Part shown: piece by piece, positions 1 through 17,630 of the stretch
Layout: every line of letters begins with the position of its first letter
Numbering within the stretch: the first letter of the stretch is position 1
Notes under the pieces: generated by a model
Seen by the model: the letters and a program-made list of their open reading frames with translations, nothing else
The model's database searches: none
Told to the model about the DNA's origin: nothing
Source of the DNA: Candidatus Nomurabacteria bacterium
GTDB taxonomy: Bacteria > Patescibacteriota > WWE3 > UBA101185 > UBA10185
NCBI GenBank assembly: GCA_020631855.1
Contig: JACKGU010000001.1
Location: 1-37,600 of the forward strand
Length of the DNA stretch: 37,600 bases
Direction: 5' to 3'
Translations under genes and position numbers: made by a program

Positions 1-689
1 ACGACTCTCGCCCCGTATTCACAGGAATAATGATGAGTTACTCAGACGGCAAGTTAACTTTAGTTTCGACCGACGGATACAGGTTAAGCGAAAGAATTGT
101 TTCCCTCGAACCGGTTTTAGCAAAAGAGTCACGAGAGTTCAGTGTTGTTATACCTGCGAAAACTCTTGTTGAGGTTGCGAGAACATTCGCTTCCTCAGAA
201 GAGAATATAAAGGTATACGTAGATGAGGACGAAAGTTTATGTATTTTCGAATCCGGAGATACTGTCATATCAACAAGACTCCTCGAAAGCTCTTTTCCTG
301 ACTATAAGGCGGCCATTCCTCAAGCCGGAGTAGTAACCGCAAACTTCGCTTCGTCCGATTTACTTGAGGCGGTTAAGCTCACAAGCGTTTTTGTAAAAGG
401 CGGTTCGTCCGGTGCGCTAAAAATTGCAGTTGATCCGGAAACCTCGTTGTTAAGTGTGTCTTCTGCGGAGGCTGAGTTTGGGCACAATGACACTAGTATT
501 CCGGCTGAGATTCAAGGAGAGTCAATAGAACTATTTTTTAACTTCAAGTATTTATTAGACTTTTTAAATAATATTAAATACGAAAAACTTACACTTGTTG
601 CTACTGGCCCTGACTCTGCCTGTGTTTTGAGGTCTGACGAAGACTCTGAATTCATTTATGTAATGGTTCCTTTGCAGCTAAACAGCTAA
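1..689 (+). CDS. dnaN: DNA polymerase III beta sliding clamp, C-terminal ~229 aa (5' end outside window)
   Basis: Frame is open from base 3 (SRPVFTGIMM..., the clamp R-P-x-F/L-x-G-I motif). It ends ...EFIYVMVPLQL, like the ...MPMRL C-terminus of bacterial DnaN. TAA at 687-689. Confidence 0.85.
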   Translation, partial: DSRPVFTGIMMSYSDGKLTLVSTDGYRLSERIVSLEPVLAKESREFSVVIPAKTLVEVARTFASSEENIKVYVDEDESLCIFESGDTVISTRLLESSFPDYKAAIPQAGVVTANFASSDLLEAVKLTSVFVKGGSSGALKIAVDPETSLLSVSSAEAEFGHNDTSIPAEIQGESIELFFNFKYLLDFLNNIKYEKLTLVATGPDSACVLRSDEDSEFIYVMVPLQLNS

Positions 690-759: not shown

Positions 760-2832
760 TTAAAACTGTGCGGGTGGAGCACTGGGGTCTGGCAGATTCT
801 CGTCTGCCGGCTCATTGTTTATATCAGTTTCGATATTTTCTAGGTTTAATCCTTCGCCCGCTTCACTTTCTTGAATGGGGTTAAGTGTGTTTTCATATTC
901 GGTGGCCGCATCTTTACTAACAAAGCTACTTTGATCGCTCGATGCTTTAAGTTCTACAGATCGGTTCATCTGAGGCATTTGAGTCTTTGTAGTTATTCCC
1001 GCTTCAGCCTCAGCCTCTCTTCTCATTCTCAGAATTTCTTCAGGGTTGGTAGTTATTAAAGCGTTTTCTGCTGTCGAAGCCTTTATTTTTATAGCAACGT
1101 GATTTGCGCCTGCAAAAAATAAACCCTCGCCCTTGTCGGCGGATAAAAGTAGTCTTTTTTCTCCTTCAGAAAGGTAGAAAGTTTCTGCTACTTTATCTAT
1201 GGCTGCCGGGTGTTGTTTTAATAATATTTGAATAGATGAGTTTGTAACGATGGCTCTTCCATACTCTGAATTTAAAAAGTCCTCAACGTCTTGCGATATG
1301 GTTGTCAGTCCAAGGTAGTATTTTCTTGCACGTTTGGCCACTCCATAAATGAACCGCGCGCTGTCCTCATTTTGAAGTAATGACCACGCTTCTTCCACAA
1401 TAAGTATTCTTTTCTTTAAGTCCTTTTTTATCCTTGTCCATACAAAGTCTAAAATTATGTAGTAGGCAATAGGTCTTAGCACGTCTTCAAGATTTCTGGT
1501 TGAGAAAACCGTAAGCTTGCTGTTTAAATTTACAGTCGATTGAGAGTCAAAAATACCTACAAGTGAGCCTTTAATATATTTTTCTAGTCTGTCTGCCATT
1601 CCTCGGGCTTCGGGCTCTGCAGCACCCATCAGGACCTTATAAAGATCTTCCATAATAGGAGGTTCTTTATCTCTTTGTGTTGCGGGGTCAGTCGTTATGC
1701 CTTTAATTCGATACGTTTCCATAAGGGCCCTGTCCAAAAGAGCCTCCTCTATGGGCGACACTGTGCCTAGCATTAGTTTAAATAAAGTGTGCAAAGAAAG
1801 TATTTTTTGACCCAATTCGTTTTCTCCTCCTGTAGAAACTCCTGCCAAGTCAAAAGGGTTTATCTTAGAAGGCGAGCTTGAAGAGAAGCTAATGTAGTTT
1901 CCCCCTACAGCGTCAGAAAGCATTCTGTATTCTTCTTCGGGGTCTATGATCATAACTTCGGCCCCAAATATCATTAATCTTAAAGCTTCAAGTTTTACAA
2001 AATAAGATTTACCTGCGCCTGATTTTGCAAAAACAACGCTGTTAGCATTTTCTAGCGAAAACCTATCAAAGATTACCAAGGACCCGTTGTGTCTGTTTAT
2101 TCCATACATTATGCCTTCGTCGGATGTTAGATCTGAAGATGTGAAAGGAAAGGTTGTGGCTAAGCTTGTAGTATCCATGTTTCTGGTTATCATCAGTTTG
2201 TCTAAGGCAATAGGCACAGTTGACTGAAAAGCCTCTTCCATTTGTAGAGAGGCTGTTTTGGAAATTAGTAGCAATGAGCCTAAAGTGGCCTCAAGTCTTT
2301 TTGTAATGTTATTCAGTTCGTCTAGGCTGTCTGCCGGTATGGTTATATAAAAAGAAAATTGAAAAAATTTTTCTGCCCCTTTTACTAGTTGTTCTTGTAG
2401 TCCTTTAGCGTCTTGTAGAGCTATTTCGACTCCTGGATCGTTAAGCCTGCCTTTTTCCTTGTTAGTCATTACGGTGGCTTCCATTTCAGTTATTTTCCTT
2501 CGAAGATCGTCTAAAACCCCTTTAGATTCAACAGGGTAGTAGAACATAGAGATATCCAAGGAGTGTTCAAAGTTAATTACCGGAGACATCCAGTTGGCTC
2601 CTACAAACCTAGGATATCCTGATACGAAAAGAGTTCTATAGTATTTGTTACCGATTTTTATGCTGCTGAAATCAACCTCTAACGCAGGCGGGGCAATTAT
2701 ATCTTTTACATTTATCATACCGTCTGCTAGCCGTGTTGCGGGGTTCTCTTGGTCTTGTACTTGTTGCACATCTTCCGCCTGAGCTTTATTTTGTTTTTTA
2801 TTCTTTTTTTTGAATAACATTAATTTTGGCAT
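760..2832 (-). CDS. virB4: VirB4/TraC-class type IV secretion ATPase
   Basis: 690-aa ORF with ATG at 2830-2832. Walker A is AKSGAGKSY. Walker B-like ILIVEEAWSLL matches the VirB4 DEAW box, and a TTISQD motif is present. The N-terminus is Lys-rich and there is an acidic/Pro-rich ~90-aa tail. The upstream ORF stops 1 nt before this ATG. Confidence 0.85.
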   Translation of the reverse strand: MPKLMLFKKKNKKQNKAQAEDVQQVQDQENPATRLADGMINVKDIIAPPALEVDFSSIKIGNKYYRTLFVSGYPRFVGANWMSPVINFEHSLDISMFYYPVESKGVLDDLRRKITEMEATVMTNKEKGRLNDPGVEIALQDAKGLQEQLVKGAEKFFQFSFYITIPADSLDELNNITKRLEATLGSLLLISKTASLQMEEAFQSTVPIALDKLMITRNMDTTSLATTFPFTSSDLTSDEGIMYGINRHNGSLVIFDRFSLENANSVVFAKSGAGKSYFVKLEALRLMIFGAEVMIIDPEEEYRMLSDAVGGNYISFSSSSPSKINPFDLAGVSTGGENELGQKILSLHTLFKLMLGTVSPIEEALLDRALMETYRIKGITTDPATQRDKEPPIMEDLYKVLMGAAEPEARGMADRLEKYIKGSLVGIFDSQSTVNLNSKLTVFSTRNLEDVLRPIAYYIILDFVWTRIKKDLKKRILIVEEAWSLLQNEDSARFIYGVAKRARKYYLGLTTISQDVEDFLNSEYGRAIVTNSSIQILLKQHPAAIDKVAETFYLSEGEKRLLLSADKGEGLFFAGANHVAIKIKASTAENALITTNPEEILRMRREAEAEAGITTKTQMPQMNRSVELKASSDQSSFVSKDAATEYENTLNPIQESEAGEGLNLENIETDINNEPADENLPDPSAPPAQF

Positions 2833-2833
2833 A

Positions 2834-3532
2834 TTATTCTTCTATAATAGCAGGATTAACGATCGCTGTTTTATAATCTTCTATGTTTGTTCTTATTCTT
2901 TGTCCGTGTATTGTGCTCGGATTGTAAATATCAAAATAAAGCTCTACCAGCTCTTGGGTTGTCATTACCGTAGCCTTTACTCCTATTCTGTTAAATTCTG
3001 AAATCACATGGGCAACTTTTGGGGTCAGTTCTGTTTTTGCTTTGGTTAGAGCTTTATCTACATTCACAGGGGCTCTTTTTGAATGAAATCCGAAAAGCAC
3101 AAAAAACCACTCAAAAGGATTAGTTCCTTTTTTAAGATCAACTATTCCGCCGGTAGGAATAACAACATAAAATTTTTTATCTAAAACATCGTTTTTTTCG
3201 ATAACTTCTTGTACAAACTGCCTATACTGTATTGCTTGAGATTTAAGTAGAGGATCGGAGACTTTTTCCTCGTTTCTCTCCAAACTTTCGAGATACTTTG
3301 TAATATCCAGCCTTTTTGATCTTATTACTATTTGAATCGGGAAGGAGAAGGAGTTTAATAGCATGGAGAAAGCAGAGATCATCGCATCTTGCTCGATTTC
3401 CGATAGAAGGTCGAAGTTAACAGCGGTTGTTTGTAACACAGAGCATACACTTCCGTTTTTTAAAACCACGAAATCGTCTTTTATTGTCTCTATATCTAAA
3501 TGTTCTTGAGTTGTCGCTTTAATGTCTGACAT
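2834..3532 (-). CDS. T4SS-associated soluble protein resembling a stand-alone VirB4 N-terminal domain (no ATPase motifs)
   Basis: 232-aa ORF, ATG 3530-3532. TAA at 2834-2836 lies 1 nt before the virB4 ATG. No TM segment and no P-loop. By eye, DDFVVLKNGSVCSVLQTTAVNFDLLSEIEQDAMISAFSMLLNSFSFPIQIVIRS follows the pattern of VirB4/TrbE N-terminal domains and of residues ~40-120 of the adjacent VirB4. The CDS is solid; the family call is tentative. Confidence 0.4.
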   Translation of the reverse strand: MSDIKATTQEHLDIETIKDDFVVLKNGSVCSVLQTTAVNFDLLSEIEQDAMISAFSMLLNSFSFPIQIVIRSKRLDITKYLESLERNEEKVSDPLLKSQAIQYRQFVQEVIEKNDVLDKKFYVVIPTGGIVDLKKGTNPFEWFFVLFGFHSKRAPVNVDKALTKAKTELTPKVAHVISEFNRIGVKATVMTTQELVELYFDIYNPSTIHGQRIRTNIEDYKTAIVNPAIIEE

Positions 3533-3550
3533 ATGATGTACTTTTTTTTA

Positions 3551-3568
3551 TTTCGCATTTATGCGAAA
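3551..3568 (-). promoter_or_regulatory. Intercistronic stem-loop (7-bp stem, 4-nt loop) between the PrgI-like gene and the next ORF
   Basis: The + strand reads TTTCGCA-TTTA-TGCGAAA. On the transcribed (-) strand it is followed by an A-run rather than a U-run, so it is not a canonical terminator. Confidence 0.35.
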
Positions 3569-3584
3569 CTCTACCTTTCAATTT

Positions 3585-5549
3585 TTATCTGCCCTTTATC
3601 AGAATAGGTGGTATTATCTTTCCTGCGACCTCTACTTTAATTATATCAAAGCTGAGGTTAGTTCGTTTAGACTTGTCAGTTTCGATAGTATAAGTACCGT
3701 TTAGCAAAGGCGTGGTTATTGCAAACTCTCCAAGAGGGTTTGTTTTTAGTGCTCTTACGGGTTCTTGGGCGTGGTTTTTAATTATCAACACTATATTCTC
3801 TAATGCTCGGTTATTTTGGTCAACCACTTTGCCACTAATTATGTTAGGTATAGTGTTGGAAATCCCGCTTTCAATAAATTCAGGGGTTTCGCCGTGAATC
3901 ACTTTCTCGGTTCTTTCTCTGTCTTCCTCAATAGCTTTTTTAACAAAAGACTTTTCAGTTAGCTCTGTGTATTTTTCCTTAATCTGTGAGTAATTTTTTT
4001 CTGTTGCTTCTTTTTCTTTTTCCAGCTTTTGTATAGTTGTAATTTTTTCTGCTTTATCGTTGTCTCCTTTTGAGTTTGCAATGTCCTGTTTTAGCCTTTC
4101 TATTTGTATGCTCAGCTCCTTATTTTCTCTCTGTAGTTTAGCTAGAAGATTTTTTATATCTTGCCCTATTTGGATTACGGGTTGAGTATTGTCGACGGGC
4201 ATTCCAAAAGGACTTTGTGTTGTTGTGATTATTTCGTCATCCGGACCGAATTGTGCGCTGTACCCTGTATTCGTGCTGGTTGTATTGATAGTGCTTGCGT
4301 TGTTTGCTTCGTGATTACTCGGGAAAGAGCTTTTTTCTTCGAGCGCGGAATGGTTCATTTGTAAGCTGCCTTGGACATTTGATGTTAGGGGTATCTCTTT
4401 TTCTACAGGTTTCGCTGCTACAATATTTTTATATTTTGCATCTCGCTTTATTTGTTCTAAAAGAGCGTTAAGCTGCTTTGTTTTATTTTGCAGTTCTTCA
4501 TCAATTTCCATTTCTTCTGAGGTCCTTAGGGTTTTTTCGCCTTTTATTGGTAACACTATCTCGCCTTTGCTGGGTACTAGGTTTGTAAAGGCTCTGCCCG
4601 AATGTCTGTCGGGCGTGATTGGCGCGGGTTCAAAATACGAGGTGGTGAGAAACTGTGGCTTTTCAGATGGGTTGTATGCGTTGTCAAACTGAGCTTCAGG
4701 AATAAGATGTTTTGGTTCTGCCGTTGCTGCTTGTGTTGTTTGTGAGGCGCCGGCGCCTGCCGGCGCCTGACCCCCACTTCCCTCAATAGTTTTCGGTGCT
4801 GATCCAAAGCTTAAAGACCCCGCGCCTGGGGCCCCGGCTATGTTTCCGGGAACAGCCGCACTGTATTGGTTACTGTCCAGTCTTTTTTCTTCGGACGGAC
4901 TGTGAGATTTTTGAAAACCAGCGTCATCTATTACTTTAGCGTGAGCTGCTGGTGCTATAGGTGCAGTAGCCGCAGTTTGTATGCCCGGCCCCATTCTTTT
5001 TTGAACATTTCCTCCTGGAGTATAGGGGTTGGCCTTTGAAACAGGAGTTCCGGCAAAAGCTGCTGCTACCTTGTTTATATACACATGTTCTTGAAAATCC
5101 AACGGATCGTTGTTTGGGGCCGAGTCTTGGGCGGTAAGAAATTCCTCCAGTTTTCTCCTGCTTGTAGTAGGGGAAAGCGTTATTAGCTCTTGTCTTACAA
5201 CGTTCAAATTTTCAAAAGTAAACGCTGCCGGAATCTCGGGTGTTTTTTTCCAGATTCTCTGGTTTGGTAAATATATAGACTTAATAAAATTTACAACCCA
5301 CTGATCCAGCCCTCTATCTTCAATAGGTAAAAAAGCCAAACTTAGCCCAAACAGTACTAAAAAAAGTATAATAGGCCATTTAAATATAGAGTTTACAAAA
5401 GCGAATACGCCGTAGGCAATTCCGCCTGACAACGCAAGGTACATGAATTGCCTCATCGTTAGGTCACCAATAATCTTAAATTCCACATCCATTATGTTTT
5501 GTGGAAGCGCGTGTTGCTTGTTTGTTGTTTGCGTGTCGTTTAAAGGCAT
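3585..5549 (-). CDS. PrgI/TcpE-like (VirB3-analogue) two-TM protein fused to a long low-complexity, coiled-coil and beta-sandwich tail
   Basis: 654-aa ORF, ATG 5547-5549. The N-terminus DLTMRQFMYLALSGGIAYGVFAFV...WPIILFLVLFGLSLAFLPIEDRGLDQW is a two-TM hairpin located just upstream of VirB4. It is followed by a P/A/G/S-rich stretch and a K/E coiled coil (LQRENKELSIQIERLKQDI). The C-terminus is a carboxypeptidase-regulatory-like pattern (GKVVDQNNRALENIVLIIKN...GEFAITTPLLNGTYTIETDKS). Confidence 0.5.
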   Translation of the reverse strand: MPLNDTQTTNKQHALPQNIMDVEFKIIGDLTMRQFMYLALSGGIAYGVFAFVNSIFKWPIILFLVLFGLSLAFLPIEDRGLDQWVVNFIKSIYLPNQRIWKKTPEIPAAFTFENLNVVRQELITLSPTTSRRKLEEFLTAQDSAPNNDPLDFQEHVYINKVAAAFAGTPVSKANPYTPGGNVQKRMGPGIQTAATAPIAPAAHAKVIDDAGFQKSHSPSEEKRLDSNQYSAAVPGNIAGAPGAGSLSFGSAPKTIEGSGGQAPAGAGASQTTQAATAEPKHLIPEAQFDNAYNPSEKPQFLTTSYFEPAPITPDRHSGRAFTNLVPSKGEIVLPIKGEKTLRTSEEMEIDEELQNKTKQLNALLEQIKRDAKYKNIVAAKPVEKEIPLTSNVQGSLQMNHSALEEKSSFPSNHEANNASTINTTSTNTGYSAQFGPDDEIITTTQSPFGMPVDNTQPVIQIGQDIKNLLAKLQRENKELSIQIERLKQDIANSKGDNDKAEKITTIQKLEKEKEATEKNYSQIKEKYTELTEKSFVKKAIEEDRERTEKVIHGETPEFIESGISNTIPNIISGKVVDQNNRALENIVLIIKNHAQEPVRALKTNPLGEFAITTPLLNGTYTIETDKSKRTNLSFDIIKVEVAGKIIPPILIKGR

Positions 5550-5707
5550 AGTTTATGTGTATTTATTGTATTGTAGGTGTAGCGGAAAAACAAGTTACAC
5601 AGGTTGCGCGGTTGGTGTTTTTACAACAACCTTTTTTGTTTGCAAATTCTGCAAACATTAGAATTTAGAAAAAGTGTTTTGGTGCCTTTGAAAATTGGTA
5701 TATTAAT

Positions 5708-7066
5708 CTACCTCTTCTTATCGTCTCCTGCAACCAATGCCTTTACTTTATCCGGAGCTTTGCGTGCGTAATTATAGCCTACTAGGTATATAATTAGGGT
5801 TAGGGCACCCTTAGTAAAATATGGCATAGGAATAAGGCCCGTGCTGGATGTTCCCATAATAGTTATTGATGCTACCCTAGTTATTGCTATGGTTGCTTGC
5901 CCGGCAAGTATTCCCAGTGCATATCCTGCCATTGTTTTAAACCATCCAACAGTCGCTTTTTCATTTCCAGGAATCGCGCCAAAAACAAAAATAAGAGGGG
6001 CTTTTATAACCTCTATCAACATTTTTATATAGAAAATGAACAGCTTTACTTGCACAATAAGGTATAAGATTACAATCATGATTAATATCGTGAAGAGAAC
6101 AATGAATGCTACCCCTGCGGCTGGGATAAATGCCTGAAATATAAGCATTGCAAGGATAAAGATCTCGAGGCCAAATCCTATGTTGGCAGCAGCCACAACT
6201 CCATTTGCCGTTAAGGTATTTGCGCTTGTTGTTTGCGCTATGTCTCTAATAACCCCAACAACCGAGTATTTGGCAACATAGGCCAGGTTTGCAATTGCTG
6301 CACCTATTGGGTAGCTAAAGTATATTAGAACAATTGCAAGTATTAATCTTGGTAGTGCATATTGAACCGTAACCGCAACTTGTGCGCTAACTTTTTTCCT
6401 ATTTATTATCATAACCCCAACTACTATTGAAACGATGGCGAGTACCCCGAATGCAACGTTTCGTGACATTGCCCAAAACTCGTACACTATATCTAGCCAA
6501 GGCGATGTGTATTGAAGTCCCGTTTGTTGAGCAAATACCGGACTGATCAAAGGTATGCCCTCCGTTTCTCTTTGTATGAAGTATGCCATGTTAACTGGCA
6601 TGGGTTCAGTGTTCGCCTCTTGAAAGGCATTTGCTAATCCAAGGAGGCTTCCTTTGCCTCTAGCATCAAAATCTCCCCCATTGCTTGTGGTTGGTTCAGA
6701 GAAGTTGTTTCCCAAACCTTCGCAGTATGTAGGGTCTTGGGGTTGACAGTCCTCAGCATCCATTTGAAGATCAACCCCTTGAGCTGAGTATTCGCTTAGA
6801 GCGTATCCGCCGCACTGTGTGACCTGGGTAGCGTTTCCGTTAAAAGCTATGCTTGAGGCTCCTGTTAAGCCTGCAGCATACATGCTCCCTACCGTGGGCA
6901 TTCTAATATCTATTGCAGAGCTTTTACCTACGTTTTCAAATGTGTCAAGTTCGGGGTCACAGTTAGCCGCATATATTGACCTTGATGCGACTGTTCCGAA
7001 AAGAACAGTTAAAGTAAGTAAAAAAGAGAGAAGTTTAAAATTTTTTGTGTTTGTAAACTGAGCCAT
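5708..7066 (-). CDS. VirB6/TrbL/ConG-like polytopic membrane protein (putative T4SS channel subunit)
   Basis: ATG at 7064-7066 gives MAQFTNTKNFKLLSFLLTLTVLFGTVASRSIYA, a signal peptide. The ORF-track start at 7087 is a TTG 7 codons upstream. A ~190-aa Cys-containing exported domain is followed by at least 6 hydrophobic helices. The gene sits next to the PrgI-like and VirB4 genes. Confidence 0.5.
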   Translation of the reverse strand: MAQFTNTKNFKLLSFLLTLTVLFGTVASRSIYAANCDPELDTFENVGKSSAIDIRMPTVGSMYAAGLTGASSIAFNGNATQVTQCGGYALSEYSAQGVDLQMDAEDCQPQDPTYCEGLGNNFSEPTTSNGGDFDARGKGSLLGLANAFQEANTEPMPVNMAYFIQRETEGIPLISPVFAQQTGLQYTSPWLDIVYEFWAMSRNVAFGVLAIVSIVVGVMIINRKKVSAQVAVTVQYALPRLILAIVLIYFSYPIGAAIANLAYVAKYSVVGVIRDIAQTTSANTLTANGVVAAANIGFGLEIFILAMLIFQAFIPAAGVAFIVLFTILIMIVILYLIVQVKLFIFYIKMLIEVIKAPLIFVFGAIPGNEKATVGWFKTMAGYALGILAGQATIAITRVASITIMGTSSTGLIPMPYFTKGALTLIIYLVGYNYARKAPDKVKALVAGDDKKR

Positions 7067-7115
7067 AGTGTTAGTAAAATAATACAAGTTTATTTTAAGA
7101 AAAGCAATTTCATTA

Positions 7116-7121
7116 TAGAAT
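7116..7121 (+). promoter_or_regulatory. -10-like hexamer TAGAAT 6 nt upstream of the ATG at 7128 (possible leaderless transcript)
   Basis: The hexamer lies in the 61-bp divergent intergenic region. No SD precedes 7128. ATTATA at 7112-7117 reads TATAAT on the - strand and could serve the VirB6-like operon. Confidence 0.25.
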
Positions 7122-7127
7122 AAACTA

Positions 7128-10100
7128 ATGGCAAGTTCGAACCCATTTTATGTTGGTTATCATCCTGACGACAAACCGACTCAAATAAAACCCAAGAACA
7201 TACTGCAGGGCGCAGATCCCCAAAAAGCACTTGATAGTCTGTTAAATACCGGTTTGCTGGACCAAGCTCTGCAAGACATAGACGTGCCGAGATATGTTAA
7301 GGAAAAAATAAAGAATGATTTCCTCTCCTCTTTAGCGGTGCAGATAAAAGACAGCTCTGTTTCAGCGGCCGATCTTGCTTTACTGCCCCCTGAAGCCCTT
7401 CAAGACATGCAAGGGTCTTTTGGTATAAAAATAAGCCTCAACCCGCTAGATTGGAAAGATGACCCTGTCAAGCAGTTGAAGAAAACACTTAGCAGTTGGG
7501 TAAAGGCTGCCTATGACCCGGACGATTTCCGTACTACTACAATGATGAAGGTCGCTCAGTCTGTTTACGGGAACTCAAAGCCCTATACTAGAACAAGTTC
7601 TGGGGCTTCGAGAAGGTACATAATAAGTGATATCTCCGATAGACTAGCTGATTTGCAGCATAAAATAGATGAGTCTGCAATTTCATCGGCCGCTCTTAGA
7701 GATTCTGCAAGAGCCGGGAGAAATAGAGAAATGCAAGCGGCGGTAGCGGCAGGAGACCCTAACCCGTTAAAAATAGTTGGCTATGTAACGAAAACGGAAC
7801 GGAAGTCAATTACTGTAAAAGACGCCTCAGGCGCAGATGTAACCATAAGTGCTGATAAAGTCTCGGATCCTTACTCGGACGTTGTTCAAAGTTATATCTC
7901 TTTTTTACAAAGCTCTTCTAGCGGAACTTCGAAAAGAGAAGGCGGGATGGATGGTTTGATCTCATCGGGTGTTGGTGCAATATTATCCGAAATTGATGTC
8001 GATATTGAAGGTTTAAGCTTAGCCCCAGGAGTTACAGACTATTCGGATAAAGTAAGGGCTCTGATAGATACAAGATTTGCGGGACAGCCCGCCGCTGTGC
8101 GCGATACTTATGTTTCGCAAATATTATCTCTTCACTCTCAGCAAGAGCTGGCAAAGTCGATGTACGGCTTTAATGAGTTTTTATCTAATGCCAACCCCGC
8201 TAAGAGTTTGGGTATTTCTGCCGCGCTTGACCAGTATATGGCAGTGGGAAGATCGCAGCGGCAGGCTTTGGCAGCAGACCCTGCTTTTATGGCTCGTTTT
8301 ACAAATTATTCTGCCGAGGCTGCAAAGGCCAGAACAGCTCTGGAAAATTTTAAGTTAAGCCCTGAATATCTTCGCGATCCGGATAAATACAAAGGTATAG
8401 TTAAATCCTTCGAGAGAAACTTTAAACAGCTTGACTCACGGGTGGCGCCTTTAGTCACGGCTTTCCAAGCTAACCCTTCTGTTAACTCGGCCCGCGCACT
8501 CGCGACTGCGTCTAAAAGAATCACTGCAGTAGGTCTAACTGCCCCTATTGCCGGAGGAGATCATCTTCAGCGCGCCCCTTTAAGAAAACTTTACAGGCAG
8601 ATGTATGAAGATCACCTAAGGCCGCAAGGTCCGGGTATTATAAATTCCGGCTTACTTCAAAGAAGCCTTGGATTAGGAGTTTTATTTAATGAGGCGGAAA
8701 AAATACGAAACGAGAACTGGGCGGAGGACGTGCTCCAGCTTCTTGAGGGAGGAAAGCTAACCGATACTTTTGTTTGGATGCGTGTAAAAAATACTTTTCC
8801 TTATGTTTTCCCAAGTTATTGGGTAGGAAGAGTTTTAGACAAAGTCCAGTATTTCGGGCTTGTTATTGACGAGAGCTCGATAGAAAAGACTACGACAACC
8901 CTTTTTGGAATTAGGAGATTTTACAAAGATTTGCTTGAGAACTCGGACGGAGGGGGCGTTCTTGGATTTTTATTTGTAAACAAAGTAAAAGTTGAAGCCA
9001 CAGGTTTCTTTGGAGATATAGTAAAACTTAATTTGACCGGAGGTGCCCACATGAACGGCGCCCTAGCCATGTCTAAATGGCTAATCAGCAATGCGGGGTC
9101 GGCAAACATTTCTGACATTGACGACATGGTTAAAGGCATGCTTACCAACTTTAGATTTCATTATCTTGCCGACGGTAGCATTAACATAGCCAACACAAAG
9201 TCCGCACTTACGGACTTTTTATTAAGGGACCCAAAATATAAGAATCTTTTGCCTACTTTATTTAAAGACGGTGCTGATCTTGACGATTTTTTGGGAAAAT
9301 TTATTGTTTTCAAACAATATGTAGATGCAAAGCTCGCTAAGTACCTCGGGATATCGATAGACATGCTAGATCAAGGTCTAGGTCTCGAGTTCGTTGTTTT
9401 TCAAGAGCTGCATAAGTTTAACTTAAGCAATGATACCAGAGGCAAGCTCGCTGTTAAGTTAATGGGGCCGCTTCAGAAAATAGCCTTAAAACTTAACATT
9501 TTACAAACAAACATATTAAACAAATTTCCAATTACCAGACTTATTTTTGGTGGCCAGAACGCTTTACTAGGATTATTGTTGGGTGGAACTTATGCGCTTA
9601 AATCTAATGTAGCCGCCTTCATCAAGAGCGGTCTTGCAAAGCTTTTTGGAAAGTTTGGCGGCGGGGCAGTGTCGGGTTTTTTTGCCTGGCTCGGGCCTTT
9701 AGGGGCCATGCTAGGGAAATTTGCGGATAAGTTACTAACGATTTTAATTAGAAAAGGATTGGATATGTTAGAAGGCCTCACTAAGGCCATTATTCACTTG
9801 GACATATCTTACTTTACAAAATCTTATAGCAAGTTTGTTGATAACACAACTAAAATAATAGTTTACCTTTTAGCTATACCCCTTTTGCTGATGTTTTTAT
9901 TTGCAGCCATGATTAATACTGTATTTAATTCCTCGACTCCTCCAACAAGTCAGGCCGCGGTCGGACAGAGCACTCCTTTAACAGGAGGCTGTTTTGGTTC
10001 TGGCTGCGGTTCAGGAACCGGGAGTACCTATGAGTGTGGTATTTCTAAAACCACTGGTAACACGTGTATTTTTAAAGATGGCAATTACAGTGTTATGAAT

Positions 10101-10682
10101 GGTTCTTTAAACATAGGCGCTGATTCTGGGCACGGCTCAAATAGTTATTGGGACTGGCTTGTTGCGAAAAAAGTAATAGGATCGGGCCAAAAGTGTTCTT
10201 TTACACTACCGATGCTCATTACTGACGGAATTGGGCCCACGCGAATCACAGATAGCGGCTCAATCCCTGGCAGTTTTTATTGCAGAGGTGACGGCACTAC
10301 CACAGAATCCCCATTGTATGGGTATGCTGTGGACTATTATACAGCCCCGAATTGCGGGTCGGTCTTTGCGCCTCCCATTAACGGCAACTCTGTGACTTGG
10401 AACCTAACCCCGTACCCCACACTTACAGGCGCGGGAGATGCCGTCTTTTTAACTACTACCCAGGGGGGAACTACATACAGATTAACCCTTCTTCATGTAG
10501 TGAATATAGTGTCTGCAACATCTGTTGATACAGGAGATTTTATTGCAGATATGTATAATTGGCAGGTTTCAGGAAGTGACAACTCTCATATACATGTTGA
10601 GTATGCAGAGGTGACTGGAGGGGCAGTAACGGTTATGGCATTAGACGATCCTTCAACCGGGTCTCCGGCGTTTTGCAGGTAA
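7128..10682 (+). CDS. Large bitopic protein: ~900-aa cytoplasmic helical region, one TM, exported Cys/Gly-rich LytM/M23-like domain (putative T4SS cell-wall hydrolase)
   Basis: 1184-aa ORF with no signal peptide. Gly-zipper amphipathic segments occur at aa ~805-865. A clear TM (IIVYLLAIPLLLMFLFAAMINTVF) lies at aa ~910-935. The C-terminal pattern YGYAVDYY..GSVFAPPINGNSV..TYRLTLLHV..VDTGDFIADM..GSDNSHIHVEY parallels M23 peptidases; the HxH motif is kept and the HxxxD motif looks degenerate. Confidence 0.5.
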   Translation: MASSNPFYVGYHPDDKPTQIKPKNILQGADPQKALDSLLNTGLLDQALQDIDVPRYVKEKIKNDFLSSLAVQIKDSSVSAADLALLPPEALQDMQGSFGIKISLNPLDWKDDPVKQLKKTLSSWVKAAYDPDDFRTTTMMKVAQSVYGNSKPYTRTSSGASRRYIISDISDRLADLQHKIDESAISSAALRDSARAGRNREMQAAVAAGDPNPLKIVGYVTKTERKSITVKDASGADVTISADKVSDPYSDVVQSYISFLQSSSSGTSKREGGMDGLISSGVGAILSEIDVDIEGLSLAPGVTDYSDKVRALIDTRFAGQPAAVRDTYVSQILSLHSQQELAKSMYGFNEFLSNANPAKSLGISAALDQYMAVGRSQRQALAADPAFMARFTNYSAEAAKARTALENFKLSPEYLRDPDKYKGIVKSFERNFKQLDSRVAPLVTAFQANPSVNSARALATASKRITAVGLTAPIAGGDHLQRAPLRKLYRQMYEDHLRPQGPGIINSGLLQRSLGLGVLFNEAEKIRNENWAEDVLQLLEGGKLTDTFVWMRVKNTFPYVFPSYWVGRVLDKVQYFGLVIDESSIEKTTTTLFGIRRFYKDLLENSDGGGVLGFLFVNKVKVEATGFFGDIVKLNLTGGAHMNGALAMSKWLISNAGSANISDIDDMVKGMLTNFRFHYLADGSINIANTKSALTDFLLRDPKYKNLLPTLFKDGADLDDFLGKFIVFKQYVDAKLAKYLGISIDMLDQGLGLEFVVFQELHKFNLSNDTRGKLAVKLMGPLQKIALKLNILQTNILNKFPITRLIFGGQNALLGLLLGGTYALKSNVAAFIKSGLAKLFGKFGGGAVSGFFAWLGPLGAMLGKFADKLLTILIRKGLDMLEGLTKAIIHLDISYFTKSYSKFVDNTTKIIVYLLAIPLLLMFLFAAMINTVFNSSTPPTSQAAVGQSTPLTGGCFGSGCGSGTGSTYECGISKTTGNTCIFKDGNYSVMNGSLNIGADSGHGSNSYWDWLVAKKVIGSGQKCSFTLPMLITDGIGPTRITDSGSIPGSFYCRGDGTTTESPLYGYAVDYYTAPNCGSVFAPPINGNSVTWNLTPYPTLTGAGDAVFLTTTQGGTTYRLTLLHVVNIVSATSVDTGDFIADMYNWQVSGSDNSHIHVEYAEVTGGAVTVMALDDPSTGSPAFCR

Positions 10683-10708
10683 GTTAATTTAACAAAAGAA
10701 AGGTTGCT

Positions 10709-11206
10709 ATGATAGAAAAAATAAAGGCTTTTTACTATAGACACAAAATAACGATCTGGGTCGCAGGAGGGGTTGCTACGATTGTTTTTCTCATCATTGT
10801 AGATAATCTAGTAGCAAATCTTTCAACACAAAGACCTAGTGTTGAGCCTGTCTACAATACAAAACAGCAAGATGTAAAAATATTAAAAATATTTCCTCCT
10901 GATGGGGCCAAGGTTTCTTCGCCGAGCAATTTTGAAGTCATCTCAGTCACTCTTTCTGCGCCAATAAAAAAAGGATCCTTGGTTATAAAAATTAATCCTT
11001 ACATAGGATATACAATTTCCTATAGCGACGAAAATCCATCTATCTTGACCATTGTACCCAAAGGCCAGGGCTGGGCTCCCAACGTGACCTATACTATTGA
11101 CTTCTTGCACGCGTTGGACGACTCCGGAAAGAAGGTTTATTTAAACTATCCTTATGTGTTTTTAAACACACCTCCTGATCCCGCAAGCATAGTCTTTCCT
11201 TTTTAA
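10709..11206 (+). CDS. Membrane-anchored Ig-like (SbsA/Big-type) domain protein
   Basis: 165 aa. The N-terminal TM is ITIWVAGGVATIVFLIIV. ILKIFPPDGAKVSSPSNFEVISVTLSAPIKKGSL is typical of bacterial Ig-like domains. The gene is 26 nt downstream of the 1184-aa gene on the same strand. Confidence 0.45.
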   Translation: MIEKIKAFYYRHKITIWVAGGVATIVFLIIVDNLVANLSTQRPSVEPVYNTKQQDVKILKIFPPDGAKVSSPSNFEVISVTLSAPIKKGSLVIKINPYIGYTISYSDENPSILTIVPKGQGWAPNVTYTIDFLHALDDSGKKVYLNYPYVFLNTPPDPASIVFPF

Positions 11207-11337
11207 TCTAAAAATTCCTGACGCAATGTGCGTCGTGTCGTCGTGAGGTTATAGAATACCGCAACCTTTCTTTAAAGAAACTAAAGTTTAAGGTTGTGTA
11301 TGATTCTATTTAGTGCGGTTGAAAAGATCCCAGGCTA

Positions 11338-11814
11338 TTACTGACAGCCCGGGAGCCCTCTTATGATAAGATTGCCGTTTGTATCGGTAAATATTCCGCA
11401 TATTCCGGCAATTACATCGTCAAAAAAATTCATGCTTGCTTGCAGGCCTGTAACATTCATTATAAGGCGTAGTACAACAAACGATCCTATTATCATTAAA
11501 AACCCTATTACAGCCTGAGTTCCCGAGAGATTTGCCCCCATTATGCCTTTCGGATCTCCTTGAGCAGTAATGTACTTATAAGCTGTAATAATAACCATCA
11601 TTGAAAAAACTGCCCCGGATGCGTAAAGAAGTATATAAACGACTCTAATTATTGGGCACATAAGTTGAGTGAACTCCGGCGCATCAACAGAGGTTAGTTG
11701 GTCGCAACCAAGCCCGGCAACCCCTGTTACTGCGTATGTTCTTTGAGGAGCAATCAGCAGCATTGTTAATAGAGAACCAAAAATGACTATTTTTTTAAAA
11801 AGTTGGCGTTGCAT
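11338..11814 (-). CDS. TrbC/VirB2-type T4SS pilin paralogue 3 (with Cys-containing extensions)
   Basis: 158 aa with signal peptide MQRQLFKKIVIFGSLLTMLLIAPQRTYA. Two hydrophobic helices flank the loop ITAQGDPKGIMGA. The ATG (11812-11814) overlaps the end of the upstream pilin gene by 20 nt. Confidence 0.6.
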   Translation of the reverse strand: MQRQLFKKIVIFGSLLTMLLIAPQRTYAVTGVAGLGCDQLTSVDAPEFTQLMCPIIRVVYILLYASGAVFSMMVIITAYKYITAQGDPKGIMGANLSGTQAVIGFLMIIGSFVVLRLIMNVTGLQASMNFFDDVIAGICGIFTDTNGNLIIRGLPGCQ

Positions 11815-12118
11815 TTTGTAGATCTCCTCCTATTCCAACAATATTTAGCAGTATTATTCTTATAAGTAAAACGGCAAAGGTTAGCAAAAGACCTAGCAAA
11901 GAATAATAAAAAGATTTCATTGCGGTCGCGTATTTTTTTGGGTCCGCAAGACTAGTGATAACCCTTATGCCGGAAAATCCAATGAAAATTATTGATAGAG
12001 ATATTCCTACCCCGATCATAACATTCAGTATAAGTCCCAGAACGTCACCTATCGAGTTGAAATTGGATCCGGTTAGTCCCGAGGCACTGCCGTTTATTTT
12101 TTGTAAATAATAAAACAT
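11795..12118 (-). CDS. TrbC/VirB2-type T4SS pilin paralogue 2
   Basis: ATG at 12116-12118; the ORF-track start at 12127 is GTG, 3 codons upstream. Two hydrophobic helices flank the loop ITSLADPKKYATA. Confidence 0.6.
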   Translation of the reverse strand: MFYYLQKINGSASGLTGSNFNSIGDVLGLILNVMIGVGISLSIIFIGFSGIRVITSLADPKKYATAMKSFYYSLLGLLLTFAVLLIRIILLNIVGIGGDLQNATPTF

Positions 12119-12134
12119 ATTTTTCACACACCAA

Positions 12135-12164
12135 CACGGCCCTGCCTTTCTTGGCAGGGCTGTG
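12135..12164 (-). promoter_or_regulatory. Intercistronic 12-bp stem-loop between pilin genes 1 and 2
   Basis: The + strand reads CACGGCCCTGCC-TTTCTT-GGCAGGGCTGTG, with one mismatch. It is GC-rich in an AT-rich spacer. No U-run follows on the transcribed strand. Confidence 0.4.
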
Positions 12165-12188
12165 CCAGTTTAACCCCTAGCTCAAACA

Positions 12189-12554
12189 TTAGAATGGGGT
12201 GATTCCGCTTATACCGCTGTTTGTACCACTTATTCCTACAACATTCTGTGCGATTATCTTTATTGTGATCGCGCCGACTACTATCAAAAATCCTATAAGT
12301 GCGTTTGTAAGAGCCGTTCTAGCAGAGGCCGCTTTTTTTGTATCCCCTTTTGCTGTGATATGTTCTATACCCGCAATGCCCAAGAAGATAACTGTTAGAG
12401 CAATGCCGACTCCTATAACTAAGTTCATGACAACGCCAAATATAGCCGCCAGAGTACCCGCGGTTGCTATTGGTGATCCTGAAAACGGGTCAACGACAGT
12501 AACAGGAACGCTAGTTTGTGCATGAGCTGTCTTTAACATTTTTTCTACTAACAT
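12189..12554 (-). CDS. TrbC/VirB2-type T4SS pilin paralogue 1 (likely major pilin)
   Basis: 121 aa. A strong SD (GGAGGTG) lies ~7 nt upstream of the ATG, and an in-frame TAA directly precedes the ATG. A short leader MLVEKMLKTAHA is followed by two long hydrophobic helices flanking ITAKGDTKKAASA. Confidence 0.7.
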   Translation of the reverse strand: MLVEKMLKTAHAQTSVPVTVVDPFSGSPIATAGTLAAIFGVVMNLVIGVGIALTVIFLGIAGIEHITAKGDTKKAASARTALTNALIGFLIVVGAITIKIIAQNVVGISGTNSGISGITPF

Positions 12555-12609
12555 TTACTGCACCTCCTTTATAAAAAAACCTGAAAAGTAACATTTTACT
12601 AACTGTAAT

Positions 12610-12618
12610 ATTATATCA
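12610..12618 (-). promoter_or_regulatory. Extended -10 promoter candidate (TGaTATAAT) for the pilin operon
   Basis: The reverse complement of 12610-12618 is TGATATAAT, ~50 nt upstream of the pilin-1 ATG. No good -35 was seen. Confidence 0.3.
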
Positions 12619-12864
12619 GATGAACTGGATTGTTAGTATTGTATTTAGAAATCAACTTAATACTTGCAGGATATGTATTATTAACACTTGTTATATATGG
12701 CTTGTGGTATGGTTTGCTGGAGATCGTTTGTGTTACTATATAAGCAGTAAATATTTTTCATAGTTGCCTTTTGCTAAATTACAAAGTTACAAAAAGCAAA
12801 GCAGCTCTGATGGAGTAGTCTTAGCGCTGGTACAGGGGGCACCCTATACAAGACAAAAATTATC

Positions 12865-13605
12865 ATGTCGTTCTTTTTAGCACTGCTTGTTATATTGGTA
12901 ATACTTATAGTCCCTTTTTTAAAAGTTATACCCGAAGGTTATCACGGCGTAGTTCTTTTTTTGGGGAAATATAACAGAACACTTAACCCCGGCTTAAATT
13001 TTGTACTTTTTCCCCTCGAACAAGTTATAAAGGTCGACATAAGAGAGCAGGTTATGGACATTCCTACTCAGGAGGCTATAACCAAAGATAATGTTTCCTG
13101 CATGGTAGATGGGATAGTACGCTTTAAGGTTTTAAATCCTTCGACAGCTATATTTAAAGTTCAAAACTATCAAAGTCAAATATCGGCCAAAGCTCAGACA
13201 GCCCTAAGGGACGTTATAGGCAGCATTACTTTAGACGAGGTACTTACAAAAAGAGCAGAAATCGCAGAACATATAAAGGGTATTGTTGACACGGCAGCCG
13301 AACAGTGGGGTGTGGATATATCGGCAATTGAGATGCAAAATATTGAGATTCCTGCAGATATGAAAAGAGCTATGGCTCAACAAGCCGAGGCCGAAAGGGA
13401 TAAAAAAGCTAGAATCATTAAAGCTCAGGGAGAGAAAGAAGCCGCAGTGCAGTTGGCTGAAGCCGCGCAGGTTTTATCGGGAGCAAAAGGTGCTTTGGAG
13501 CTTCGAACACTGCAAACTCTAAAGGAAATTTCAGCAGATCCTTCTGAGAAGATAATAATGACTATACCCAATTCGTTTTTCGAGGTGTTAAATCCACGAA
13601 AATAG
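12865..13605 (+). CDS. SPFH/Band-7 (stomatin/prohibitin-like) membrane protein
   Basis: 246 aa with an N-terminal TM. The PHB-domain pattern is VIPEGYHGVVLFLGKY...IPTQEAITKDNV. An Ala/Glu-rich helix follows (AMAQQAEAERDKKARIIKAQGEKEAA). Confidence 0.85.
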   Translation: MSFFLALLVILVILIVPFLKVIPEGYHGVVLFLGKYNRTLNPGLNFVLFPLEQVIKVDIREQVMDIPTQEAITKDNVSCMVDGIVRFKVLNPSTAIFKVQNYQSQISAKAQTALRDVIGSITLDEVLTKRAEIAEHIKGIVDTAAEQWGVDISAIEMQNIEIPADMKRAMAQQAEAERDKKARIIKAQGEKEAAVQLAEAAQVLSGAKGALELRTLQTLKEISADPSEKIIMTIPNSFFEVLNPRK

Positions 13606-13612
13606 TTATTAG

Positions 13613-16394: not shown

Positions 16395-17630
16395 TTAAAT
16401 TGTTAACCCCAAAAGAGACTGAATTGCTAGCCTGATTATTACTATAAATCCAAGCAGCGCTATAGTTCCAAGAACAGCAGCTACAAAGCCCTCTCTAGCG
16501 TCTTTTACTTTTGCGGGATCTCCTTGGCTGGTCATGGTTTTATATCCATTTATTAGTATCATCGGCAAGCTGAAAAAACCAAGAGCCGCAGGAATCATAA
16601 GTGACATAAGAGATGTCAGCAAAGTTTCAAAGTTTATCAAAGGCCCTGTGTATTCTCTTCTTGGCGGGGCGGGTATGCAGGTAATGTTCCGAACGCATTG
16701 ACCGCTGGTGTTGCAAGTTTCATTTGCTGCGCAGCCACCATAACCGCATGTATTTATGTACGCTGGGTCATATGTACATTCGCCCGAGGGTAAGATACCT
16801 GTCGGTATCCCGCATATATCAGTAAATCCGTTTCCATCTCCATCGACGTCCAAGACGCATCCAGGTCTAGGAGGAACACCTGTGTACCCGCAGTATTCCC
16901 CAGTAGTGCAGGCAACTTTGACTGGTCCGCACAGGTCACGCCCATTGTGGTTTGCAATGAAAGTTGCGTCGCATGCAGGTGCAGTAGATGCAAGGTAACA
17001 TGTTGTTGGAGCGCTGAAAGGCTGACTAAGGTTTATCGAAAACCTTGCCGCCTCAACAACGTTGCTGTCATTGGAAACCCAATTGTAGTTTCCTGCTACT
17101 TCAACGAGGTTTACTTGAACAATCACTTGGCTAGTGGCGGGGTCAGATATTTCTACTCCTGTACCAAAAAGCCGAGTTGAACTTGATGGCTCACAGCCCG
17201 GGCCAGAAATCGCGCCGTCCTCTTGGCATTGGAATACATAACCTGAACTATCCGCTGGCCATTCAATCTCGTTCGATACCCCTATTCTTACACCGTTCTG
17301 ATCGTACACATGCAAGTTAAAACGTACCGTGTCTACATGGACAAAAGAGTAATAGCCTGATGGGTCTGTAGAAGCAGGTATTTTAGGGTTTATTGTTACC
17401 GTGGCGTTTACTATACTATTCAAAGCCATGCTACCGCAGTTGGCAACTTCAGAGGAGAAAGAATCCATTAAAAATTCGTAGTTCGTTGGTTCATGTGTTC
17501 CTTCTGCATGCGCAGTTTTCACAAATGCTCTCGTTAAAACATCGTTGTCGATAGGGATACCCACTGCAGACACTGCCCAGATTACTCCTGCAACAAAGGT
17601 ATAAAAGAATATTATTTTGATTCTGTTCAT
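16395..17630 (-). CDS. Exported beta-rich plus Cys-rich domain fused to a C-terminal T4SS-pilin module (candidate tip/adhesin pilin)
   Basis: 411 aa. An N-terminal signal/anchor is followed by KTAHAE. About 17 Cys residues occur in aa ~210-320. The C-terminal ~85 aa (SLMIPAALGFFSLPMILINGYKTMTSQGDPAKVKDAREGFVAAVLGTIALLGFIVIIRL) have the same two-helix plus GDPxK loop layout as the pilins at 11.3-12.6 kb. Confidence 0.55.
   Translation of the reverse strand: MNRIKIIFFYTFVAGVIWAVSAVGIPIDNDVLTRAFVKTAHAEGTHEPTNYEFLMDSFSSEVANCGSMALNSIVNATVTINPKIPASTDPSGYYSFVHVDTVRFNLHVYDQNGVRIGVSNEIEWPADSSGYVFQCQEDGAISGPGCEPSSSTRLFGTGVEISDPATSQVIVQVNLVEVAGNYNWVSNDSNVVEAARFSINLSQPFSAPTTCYLASTAPACDATFIANHNGRDLCGPVKVACTTGEYCGYTGVPPRPGCVLDVDGDGNGFTDICGIPTGILPSGECTYDPAYINTCGYGGCAANETCNTSGQCVRNITCIPAPPRREYTGPLINFETLLTSLMSLMIPAALGFFSLPMILINGYKTMTSQGDPAKVKDAREGFVAAVLGTIALLGFIVIIRLAIQSLLGLTI

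Follow-up and report, generated by a model that had tools for sequence, protein, structure and literature searches.

In the Saccharibacterium S. epibionticum, a type IV secretion system (T4SS) cluster, SEML1_0006-0019, is essential for epibiotic growth; it encodes a series of essential predicted pilins, and neither a coupling protein nor a relaxase could be recognized in it (Wang et al. 2023, PMC10633639). A survey of the phylum Patescibacteria by Quinonero-Coronel et al. (2025, PMC12102498) found a distinct clade of VirB4 ATPases that shares ancestry with mating-pair formation class FATA (MPF-FATA), in which TrsD is the most abundant partner and is accompanied by PrgI/VirB3, VirB6 and arrays of 2-11 VirB2 genes, with very few relaxases, type IV coupling proteins (T4CPs) encoded mostly far from virB4, and dnaA/dnaN close by. 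These points are restated in a 2025 review (PMC12857230), while a perspective describes the role of such systems as 'completely unknown' and offers effector delivery or nucleotide acquisition as candidates (PMC11665869), and a 2026 preprint reports tubular structures at the parasite-host interface that are possibly T4SS pili (bioRxiv 10.64898/2026.06.21.733656). WWE3 is not named in the main text of the survey (PMC12102498), and a literature search found no paper on a WWE3 T4SS. Here we describe a gene cluster beside dnaN in a WWE3-type genome, that of a Candidatus Nomurabacteria bacterium, within the first 37,600 nucleotides (37.6 kb, hereafter the window) of contig JACKGU010000001.1 (assembly GCA_020631855.1). 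We put the probability that this cluster is a chromosomal, vertically inherited, relaxase-less T4SS of the Patescibacteria type at about 0.8.

An earlier note on this DNA had arrived at a relaxase-less, pilus-encoding chromosomal T4SS; it was correct in this, and systems of that kind have already been published (PMC10633639, PMC12102498). What we add is a modular hydrolase family, three pilin classes and counterparts on Bacillota megaplasmids. In common with the Patescibacteria-clade T4SSs, the window locus encodes VirB4, TrsD, PrgI/VirB3, a VirB6-like protein, a wall hydrolase and a divergent VirB2-like pilin array, has neither relaxase nor T4CP at the locus, and is chromosomal, near dnaA/dnaN. 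It is set apart from them by its WWE3-type genome, by a PrgI with an extension of ~550 amino acids (aa), by a hydrolase that is a 1184-aa scaffold with a divergent M23 domain, and by a pilin that has a domain of ~300 aa fused to its N-terminus and is separated from the array by three housekeeping genes. The features of the cluster, with dnaN as a context marker, are as follows.

760..2832 (-): VirB4-type ATPase without the canonical N-terminal domain, 690 aa, with a low-complexity C-terminal tail
2834..3532 (-): TrsD-like protein, 232 aa, the VirB4 N-domain as its own gene (NCBIfam TrsD, 4e-10)
3585..5549 (-): PrgI/VirB3-like protein, 654 aa (Pfam PrgI, 2.5e-10, aa 16-98; CarboxypepD_reg, 2e-6, aa 571-631)
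5708..7087 (-): VirB6-like polytopic protein, 459 aa (from topology, position and a transitive profile link)
7128..10682 (+): M23-like membrane protein, 1184 aa (M23/LytM domain at aa ~985-1184, nucleotides ~10080-10679)
10709..11206 (+): immunoglobulin (Ig)-like anchor, 165 aa (Big_5, 4e-5, 24.6 bits against a cutoff of 23.6; N-terminal transmembrane (TM) segment)
11338..11814 (-): class I pilin, 158 aa (family hidden Markov model (HMM); weak Mbov_0395 pilin-like match, 0.019)
11795..12127 (-): class II pilin, 110 aa (T4SS_pilin, 2e-5, 25.0 bits against a cutoff of 26.6; Mbov_0395, 4e-4)
12189..12554 (-): class II pilin, 121 aa, leader ending in AQ (T4SS_pilin, 3e-5, 24.4 bits against a cutoff of 26.6)
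16395..17630 (-): class III pilin, 411 aa (T4SS_pilin, 0.096 on its own; retrieves the shared pilin family)
30..689 (+): 3' part of dnaN, convergent with virB4 (Pfam DNA_pol3_beta_2 and DNA_pol3_beta_3)

In the list of open reading frames (ORFs) of the window all ten ORFs of the cluster are present at the coordinates and strands that the earlier note had given, and all are intact. The minus-strand block running from 7087 to 760 encodes proteins of 459, 654, 232 and 690 aa; it is followed by the plus-strand pair at 7128-10682 (1184 aa) and 10709-11206 (165 aa), by a minus-strand trio of small genes from 12554 to 11338 (121, 110 and 158 aa, the last two overlapping by 20 nucleotides), and by the further 411-aa gene at 16395-17630 (-). 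Profile searches, together with fold searches, bore out the VirB4, PrgI, pilin and M23 assignments that had been proposed, and supported VirB6 more weakly.

A split VirB4 and its membrane partners

The 690-aa ATPase matches Pfam P-loop_TraG (4e-29) and the solved VirB4 ATPase domain PDB 4AG5 (1e-49), and scores above the cutoff of the NCBIfam equivalog conju_CD1110 (377 bits against 325), although it covers only positions 182-735 of that 752-position model. Residues 271-276 (SGAGKS, except A273) and E480/E481 are invariant among 20 homologues and are read as the Walker A and Walker B motifs, respectively. Its best 120 database matches are 67-84% identical, every source name given for them being WWE3 or Patescibacteria, and the closest plasmid VirB4s are at most 39% identical. 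It also matches CedB (4e-10, 38.8 bits against a cutoff of 700) and CedD (4e-6, 25.9 bits against a cutoff of 600) weakly, with scores so far under these NCBIfam equivalog cutoffs that it is not a member of either family.

The N-terminal domain of VirB4 is encoded in the adjoining gene. Of the full-length mycoplasma Mbov_0397 VirB4 model, the 232-aa ORF matches positions 102-252 (1e-14) and the ATPase gene positions 276-893; since the two match successive parts of one VirB4 model, the small ORF is a separately encoded VirB4 N-domain, with which a precomputed PF26593 (TraC-like) match concurs. A TrsD homologue was found in 77 of 80 related loci, taken from a scan with one genome per species in which homologues were detected by tblastn and many of the loci without a given gene are short contigs. 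The possibility that the two ORFs are one frameshifted gene was rejected, because TrsD is a separate ORF in every related locus mapped. The name VirB4 given to the ATPase in the earlier note thus stands, with the amendment that its N-domain lies in a separate TrsD-like gene.

The PrgI/VirB3-like protein contains two adjacent hydrophobic segments at residues 38-79, forming a membrane hairpin, beyond which it continues for ~550 aa as a low-complexity, coiled extension that ends in a CarboxypepD_reg-like beta-sandwich. Proteins of this type are usually ~100 aa long, as against 654 aa here. The parts conserved in related loci are the N-terminal ~165 aa and the C-terminal ~90 aa, and the positive-inside rule predicts a cytoplasmic location for the extension.

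The 459-aa protein encoded next to it carries a signal peptide and, besides an ectodomain of ~170 aa that contains Cys, six or more hydrophobic or TM segments. No Pfam, NCBIfam or PDB sequence match was obtained with it, alone or across 16 relatives, and the last search for homologues yielded nine matches only. The link to VirB6 is transitive: the family profile aligns with residues 427-625 of a protein designated P0242 (hhalign probability 97.9%, E 4e-13), P0242 in turn weakly matches TrbL/VirB6 over residues 466-656 (21.1 bits against a cutoff of 25.9), and a VirB6-like protein of a Pontibacillus plasmid described below matches both the window family and P0242. Its gene adjoins PrgI in all loci of type A, those in which the accessory block lies beside the core, and the protein has the topology and setting of VirB6/TrbL proteins, being polytopic with at least five TM segments and encoded in a T4SS cluster. 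It appears reasonable on these grounds to call the protein VirB6-like, which is the weakest of our assignments.

A hydrolase scaffold with a swappable C-terminal domain

The 1184-aa protein is made up of a helical N-terminal part of ~800 aa, a TM region at ~830-935 with one strong TM segment, a Gly/Ser linker and a Cys-containing C-terminal domain of ~200 aa, and has no signal peptide. It has no direct match in Pfam (including Peptidase_M23) or NCBIfam, and a word-indexed homologue search returned only the protein itself. An exhaustive HMMER search recovered 113 cluster representatives of its family, mostly 1000-1250 aa long. The M23-like label proposed earlier is borne out by these relatives and by the fold: Peptidase_M23 is matched by 6 of 47 relatives (best 3.3e-5), the family profile matches solved M23 enzymes (for example ShyA, 1.4e-5), and an AlphaFold2 (AF2) model of residues 945-1184 (pLDDT 82) has M23/LytM proteins as all of its top 50 Foldseek matches in PDB, with a TM-score of ~0.5 relative to small catalytic domains. 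In the full-length AF2 model (pLDDT 76) residues ~30-800 form an all-helical domain, and searches of PDB and BFVD gave no fold match for the N-terminal ~800 aa; long phage M23, tape-measure or internal proteins came up at a TM-score of only ~0.1 and were not taken as evidence.

Six residues are invariant in 30 aligned C-terminal domains, namely H1002 (in GHGSN), D1069 (in YGYAxD), H1123, H1154, H1156 and E1158. H1154 and H1156 form the HxH motif, and the position of the histidine in the canonical HxxxD motif is occupied by Gly1065. The invariant H1002 might substitute for this missing first histidine, and it is plausible from the alignment that the domain is catalytically active, for which an unusual first ligand would be needed.

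The divergent M23-like domain follows the TM region in 72 of the 113 family representatives. Some 33 full-length members share the scaffold and carry a different C-terminal domain, which is CHAP/NlpC (29 bits, above cutoff) or canonical M23 (41 bits) in some, and HExxH zincin-like or C39/C70-like, by weak matches only, in others. The family is thus one scaffold with a swappable C-terminal wall-hydrolase domain.

Directly 3' of the hydrolase gene lies the gene for the Ig-like protein, a homologue of which occupies this position in seven related loci; its earlier description as an anchor agrees with the Big_5 match just over the cutoff and the N-terminal TM segment. The stretch from the pilin array to the class III pilin includes, at 14373-16151 (+), the gene of a membrane-anchored protein of 592 aa with a SpoIID domain (1.3e-17). 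The SpoIID family is known from sporulation cell-wall remodelling, and this protein might be a second wall-remodelling enzyme of the T4SS or a plain housekeeping protein.

Three classes of VirB2-like pilin

All four pilin modules of the window retrieve a single family of 31 members from related loci, and in the alignment they have a conserved TM-GDPK-TM hairpin in common. Taken singly, two of them fall slightly short of the T4SS_pilin cutoff, and at the level of the family the earlier pilin assignments gain support, with T4SS_pilin matched by 29 of 31 members (best 6e-11) and TrbC/VirB2 by three. The paralogues in the window are 14-37% identical to each other, and the family divides into three classes with identities of 36-41% within and 23% between classes. 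Class I, present once in each array-carrying related locus beside the Ig-like gene, has a signal peptide, a two-TM hairpin with a GDPK loop and a Cys-containing C-terminal extension. Class II is represented by one to three genes per locus, and the window copy at 12189..12554 is 57% identical to the syntenic pilin of related locus L007. Class III carries a Cys-rich or larger N-terminal domain and heads the array in loci L007, L010, L026 and L059. The window's class III protein consists of a signal peptide, a ~300-aa N-terminal and Cys-rich domain, and a C-terminal pilin hairpin at aa ~310-411; it joins the same family and aligns through the GDP loop, in line with its identification in the earlier note as a fourth pilin-module gene. 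It is parted from the array by three genes with SPFH, OMPdecase and SpoIID family matches.

Conservation and arrangement in related loci

Among the 80 loci, VirB4 was detected in 80, TrsD in 77 and PrgI in 73, and dnaN was detected beside VirB4 in 61. The loci are labelled WWE3, Woykebacteria, other Patescibacteria and, in some cases, 'Saccharibacteria', a label that is probably wrong here. Identities to the window proteins are as follows.

VirB4: 62-81%
TrsD: 41-74%
GroEL: 72% (one locus compared)
DnaN: 27-51%
VirB6-like: 23-36%
Hydrolase: 22-36%
Pilins: 28-57%

The cytoplasmic motor is therefore more conserved than DnaN, and the exposed parts are fast-evolving: in the same loci they are 22-36% identical, as against 72-81% for VirB4.

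The VirB6-like, hydrolase, Ig-like and pilin genes lie beside PrgI in only ~10 related loci. The interval between PrgI and the RNase H/298-aa/GroEL/GroES genes holds, in the window, the VirB6-like, hydrolase, Ig-like and pilin genes, the SPFH/OMPdecase/SpoIID genes and the class III pilin; in most WWE3 loci it holds epimerase+DUF4012 and Wzz-like genes instead. In window coordinates this variable interval is 5600-17850, and an example of the other arrangement is locus L024, where 3588-7410 contains an epimerase+DUF4012 fusion and a Wzz-like gene. Most WWE3 loci have a ~1040-aa gene upstream of PrgI; we considered whether it could be the equivalent of the hydrolase, and rejected this, as it encodes an epimerase+DUF4012 envelope-polysaccharide protein with a Wzz neighbour.

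A neighbour-joining (NJ) tree of VirB4, which is rough and carries no support values, places the contiguous arrangement in two basal WWE3 branches, in two other WWE3 subclades (one of them that of the window) and in one outgroup locus, and the split arrangement in a large derived clade. Because contiguity is found in the basal branches and splitting in the derived clade, the contiguous arrangement looks ancestral.

Chromosomal setting

The virB4 stop codon is 70 nucleotides from dnaN, which is complete (376 aa) in the extended source locus, and dnaA is ~3.4 kb away. For this and the following observations the view was widened by 10 kb on each side of the window through exact-protein look-ups, giving ~57 kb in total. 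On the left flank the gene order is dnaN-jag-yidC-yidD-rnpA-rpmH, then divergent dnaA, murT, gatD, a Wzy-like gene and a solute-binding protein gene; the right flank (10 kb) holds smpB and metabolic and translation genes. The neighbours are thus dnaN and housekeeping genes, as had been noted from the window. The GC content of the cluster (0.37-0.43) equals that of the rest of the window, and there is no compositional island.

None of the window ORFs has a T4CP, relaxase or integrase family match, and none of the called genes up to 10 kb beyond either window end does. Besides VirB4, just one P-loop protein is encoded in the window, an ABC transporter. A repeat search found only short, imperfect direct and inverted repeats in the window. 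Family scans and repeat search thus bear out the statement of the earlier note that coupling ATPase, relaxase, integrase and att-like repeats are absent from the 37.6 kb.

Other features of the window

An Rfam scan of the window detected only tRNA-Cys and tmRNA, neither of them in the T4SS cluster. The tmRNA gene (tag AEDNSIAYAGVGAYAPAMALV) adjoins smpB, the two occupying 36444-36847 (-) and 36943-37401 (-), and the tRNA-Cys gene at 23704-23777 (-) is flanked by alaS and by the gene of a PEGA/SH3 protein; neither RNA gene has an associated integrase. A pair of 37-nucleotide direct repeats (19196-19232 and 19313-19349), 86% identical and 117 nucleotides apart, is located in the 522 nucleotides that separate the 298-aa gene from the 3' end of groEL, and has no Rfam match.

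Some 17 kb from the T4SS, at 29251-30099 (-), a protein with a double zinc ribbon and a phosphoribosyltransferase domain is encoded, an architecture that we take to be ComF-like. The gene at 32823-36161 (+) encodes a 1112-aa protein with hydrophobic segments at its N- and C-termini and weak Ig-like, FN3-like and CarboxypepD_reg matches, which is possibly a surface or adhesin protein; GC in this region rises to 0.51, compared with ~0.40 elsewhere in the window. A comF gene near T4SS genes has been reported for class ABY1 (PMC12102498).

Counterparts beyond Patescibacteria

Among plasmid-encoded VirB4s, the best matches to that of the window have 36-39% identity and are found on Bacillota and Actinomycetota megaplasmids. 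On a Pontibacillus plasmid (NZ_CP062975.1, 7044-17036) the genes follow the same order as in the window: pilins, VirB6-like, PrgI/TraL-like, TrsD-like, VirB4 and a 1050-aa NlpC/P60+M23 protein. Two of these genes encode T4SS_pilin proteins (Pfam 2e-12; WWE3 pilin HMM 4e-17), the TrsD-like HMM matches at 6e-44, and the annotation shows neither a relaxase nor a T4CP within 12 kb. On Priestia megaterium pFDU301A (~9880-14115) only pilin, PrgI, TrsD and VirB4 were detected, and a C. difficile record contains PrgI, a TrsD-like protein, VirB4, an 882-aa protein and a 1066-aa M23 protein. Unlike the window locus, the Bacillota clusters are on megaplasmids rather than beside the origin or dnaN, and their PrgI is short (116 aa). 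The Pontibacillus hydrolase differs from that of the window in combining NlpC/P60 with a canonical M23 domain and in an N-terminal part without detectable homology; in an hhalign comparison of the 1184-aa family with it, only the M23 part aligns, at a probability of 61%. Since Bacillota megaplasmids share it, the module order, pilins and giant hydrolase included, is not unique to Patescibacteria, and this suggests that the pilins of Patescibacteria came with the module. Reviews describe Gram-positive conjugative T4SSs as being without VirB2 pilins.

The Embleya plasmid NZ_CP108778.1 provides a conjugative counterpart of class MPF-FATA, with a 38%-identical VirB4 and, immediately downstream, a T4CP and a replication-relaxation family protein. 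Its annotated 'PrgI family protein' (10365-11414, 349 aa) contains a TrsD-like region at residues 139-250 (HMM 1.5e-14) and is a PrgI-TrsD fusion, which fits a view of TrsD as the link between VirB3 and VirB4. The window locus resembles such systems in its PrgI, TrsD, VirB4 core in the same order, with a peptidoglycan hydrolase near, and in a monoderm architecture without VirB7, VirB9 and VirB10. In contrast, conjugative MPF-FATA systems have a T4CP and a relaxase beside VirB4, whereas the window has pilins and neither DNA-processing protein. The gene order PrgI-TrsD-VirB4 is also that of the TraC-TraD-TraE type of pIP501 and pGO1.

PrgK (LytM/SLT/CHAP), TraG of pIP501 and TcpG are T4SS cell-wall hydrolases of Gram-positive systems. 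Like these, the 1184-aa protein is membrane-anchored, carries an extracellular peptidoglycan-hydrolase domain and is encoded in a T4SS cluster, and the domain types of its family (M23, CHAP/NlpC) are of the same kinds. Its architecture is reversed relative to PrgK, TraG and TcpG, with a helical and probably cytoplasmic N-terminus of ~800 aa followed by the TM region and then the hydrolase; it differs further in an N-terminal domain without a fold match and an M23 domain without the canonical first histidine.

Alternative readings and proposed function

An ordinary integrated conjugative element (ICE), or its decaying remnant, that came to lie beside dnaN by chance would account for a VirB4 in the CD1110 family, named after ATPases of ICEs and conjugative transposons, and for the lack of the VirB6-to-pilin block at the equivalent position in most related WWE3 loci. 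We regard it as extremely improbable and reject it: there is no integrase, att repeat, relaxase or T4CP in the window and its 10-kb flanks, the ORFs are all intact, GC is normal, the core trio is near-universal (73-77 of the 80 related loci, with VirB4 62-81% identical), and the contiguous arrangement looks ancestral in the VirB4 tree. The earlier note had named two observations that would have spoken for an ICE, mobility genes just outside the window and a patchy distribution; nothing ICE-like lies within 10 kb on either side, and PrgI-TrsD-VirB4 is not patchily distributed. Flanks, repeats, GC and conservation thus support its description of a domesticated chromosomal machine, and fit a vertically inherited core machine. 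The apparatus could alternatively still serve conjugation, using a relaxase and a coupling protein encoded distally, and it speaks for this that T4CP genes far from virB4 are common, VirD4 homologues being present in 2,918 Patescibacteria genomes (PMC12102498). Relaxases, however, were found in only 103 Patescibacteria genomes, with 15 relaxase genes close to virB4, and in S. epibionticum the T4CP homologue is non-essential whereas the T4SS genes are essential (PMC12102498). With neither relaxase nor T4CP within ~57 kb, and with an extreme conservation and a fixed origin-proximal position that argue for a housekeeping-like role, we give this alternative at best a slim chance; conjugation is unlikely because the locus has neither a coupling ATPase nor a relaxase associated with it.

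Several points count against the reading of the cluster as one vertically inherited, relaxase-less T4SS. Patescibacteria commonly encode VirD4 homologues at a distance from virB4 (PMC12102498), and our own scan covered ~57 kb. The VirB6 label depends on topology and on a transitive link through a sub-threshold TrbL match, and a VirB8-like component was not identified in the cluster. A Gly in place of the canonical HxxxD histidine means that activity of the M23-like domain is not assured. In most WWE3 loci the VirB6, hydrolase and pilin genes do not occur within 10 kb of VirB4, so that co-function of the two blocks is deduced from their adjacency in a minority. The three tightly packed transcription blocks of the earlier note hold as to ORF coordinates, strands and spacing, but promoter-like sites were fewer than in shuffled sequence and terminators were at chance level, so that the three-operon layout is read from gene orientation and spacing only. 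The sequence evidence is also silent on the direction and cargo of transport.

Taking the observed part identities, VirB4 domain split, lack of local DNA-processing genes and conservation pattern together, the Patescibacteria-type machine could be built as follows. The TrsD-like protein would supply the N-domain in trans to the VirB4 ATPase, which would dock, at the cell membrane, on the PrgI/VirB3-like hairpin and the VirB6-like polytopic channel. The M23/LytM-fold domain of the 1184-aa membrane protein would lie outside the cell and act as an endopeptidase that opens the peptidoglycan of the cell itself or, at the contact site, of the host, while the three VirB2-like pilin classes would polymerise into a pilus or tube reaching the host cell.

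As to what such a machine may do, the DNA-uptake systems ComB of H. pylori and Ced of archaea consist of VirB2-, VirB3-, VirB4- and VirB6-type parts, or of a VirB4-like ATPase with small membrane proteins, and are not known to need a relaxase or VirD4. VirB2/B3/B4/B6 without a nearby T4CP resembles this part list, and we lean, tentatively and at somewhat short of even odds, towards a contact-dependent uptake conduit for host macromolecules, for example nucleic acids. H. pylori ComB has been cited as a precedent for T4SS-mediated uptake (PMC11665869); ComB is, however, a diderm system with VirB7-10, and the likeness to the window is in the part list only. Export of effectors or hydrolases into or onto the host, to subvert or lyse it, which has been speculated for Saccharibacteria, is in our judgement the less likely of the two, although effector delivery is a leading hypothesis in reviews (PMC11665869) and protein export was suggested by Wang et al. 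(PMC10633639). The cargo might then be the hydrolase family itself, whose common scaffold with swapped C-terminal hydrolase domains recalls polymorphic effectors, and the rapid evolution of the exposed parts (22-36% against 72-81% for VirB4 in the same loci) would be in keeping with this. Set against export are the lack of a coupling protein or substrate receptor nearby, the strong TM segment and missing signal peptide of the hydrolase, which suggest a resident membrane protein, the presence of large NlpC/P60+M23 or M23 proteins beside VirB4 in Bacillota elements as well, and the view that VirB1-type hydrolases of those systems breach the wall of their own cell as the machine is assembled (PMC12102498).

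Implications

Patescibacteria account for a large part of the diversity of bacteria, and the window provides a clean, contiguous WWE3 example of their T4SS without defining a new category. The split of VirB4 marks out PrgI-TrsD-VirB4 as a unit, with a conservation above that of DnaN, and a swappable extracellular hydrolase domain together with fast-evolving exposed parts is what is expected of a host-facing end. It is a doubtful but consequential extension that the 1184-aa family opens the host wall, that the pilins form a heteromeric tube, and that pilus-forming monoderm T4SSs predate their acquisition by Patescibacteria. If all of this were true, a T4SS-coupled helical/TM scaffold would carry an interchangeable hydrolase domain that tracks the wall chemistry of the host, rather than a VirB1-style enzyme for the cell's own wall; the class III pilin with its large N-terminal domain would be part of a tube with a dedicated tip; and the pilins would not have been co-opted later. 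The Bacillota counterparts bear on the origin of the Patescibacteria pilins, and qualify the claim that Gram-positive T4SSs lack VirB2.

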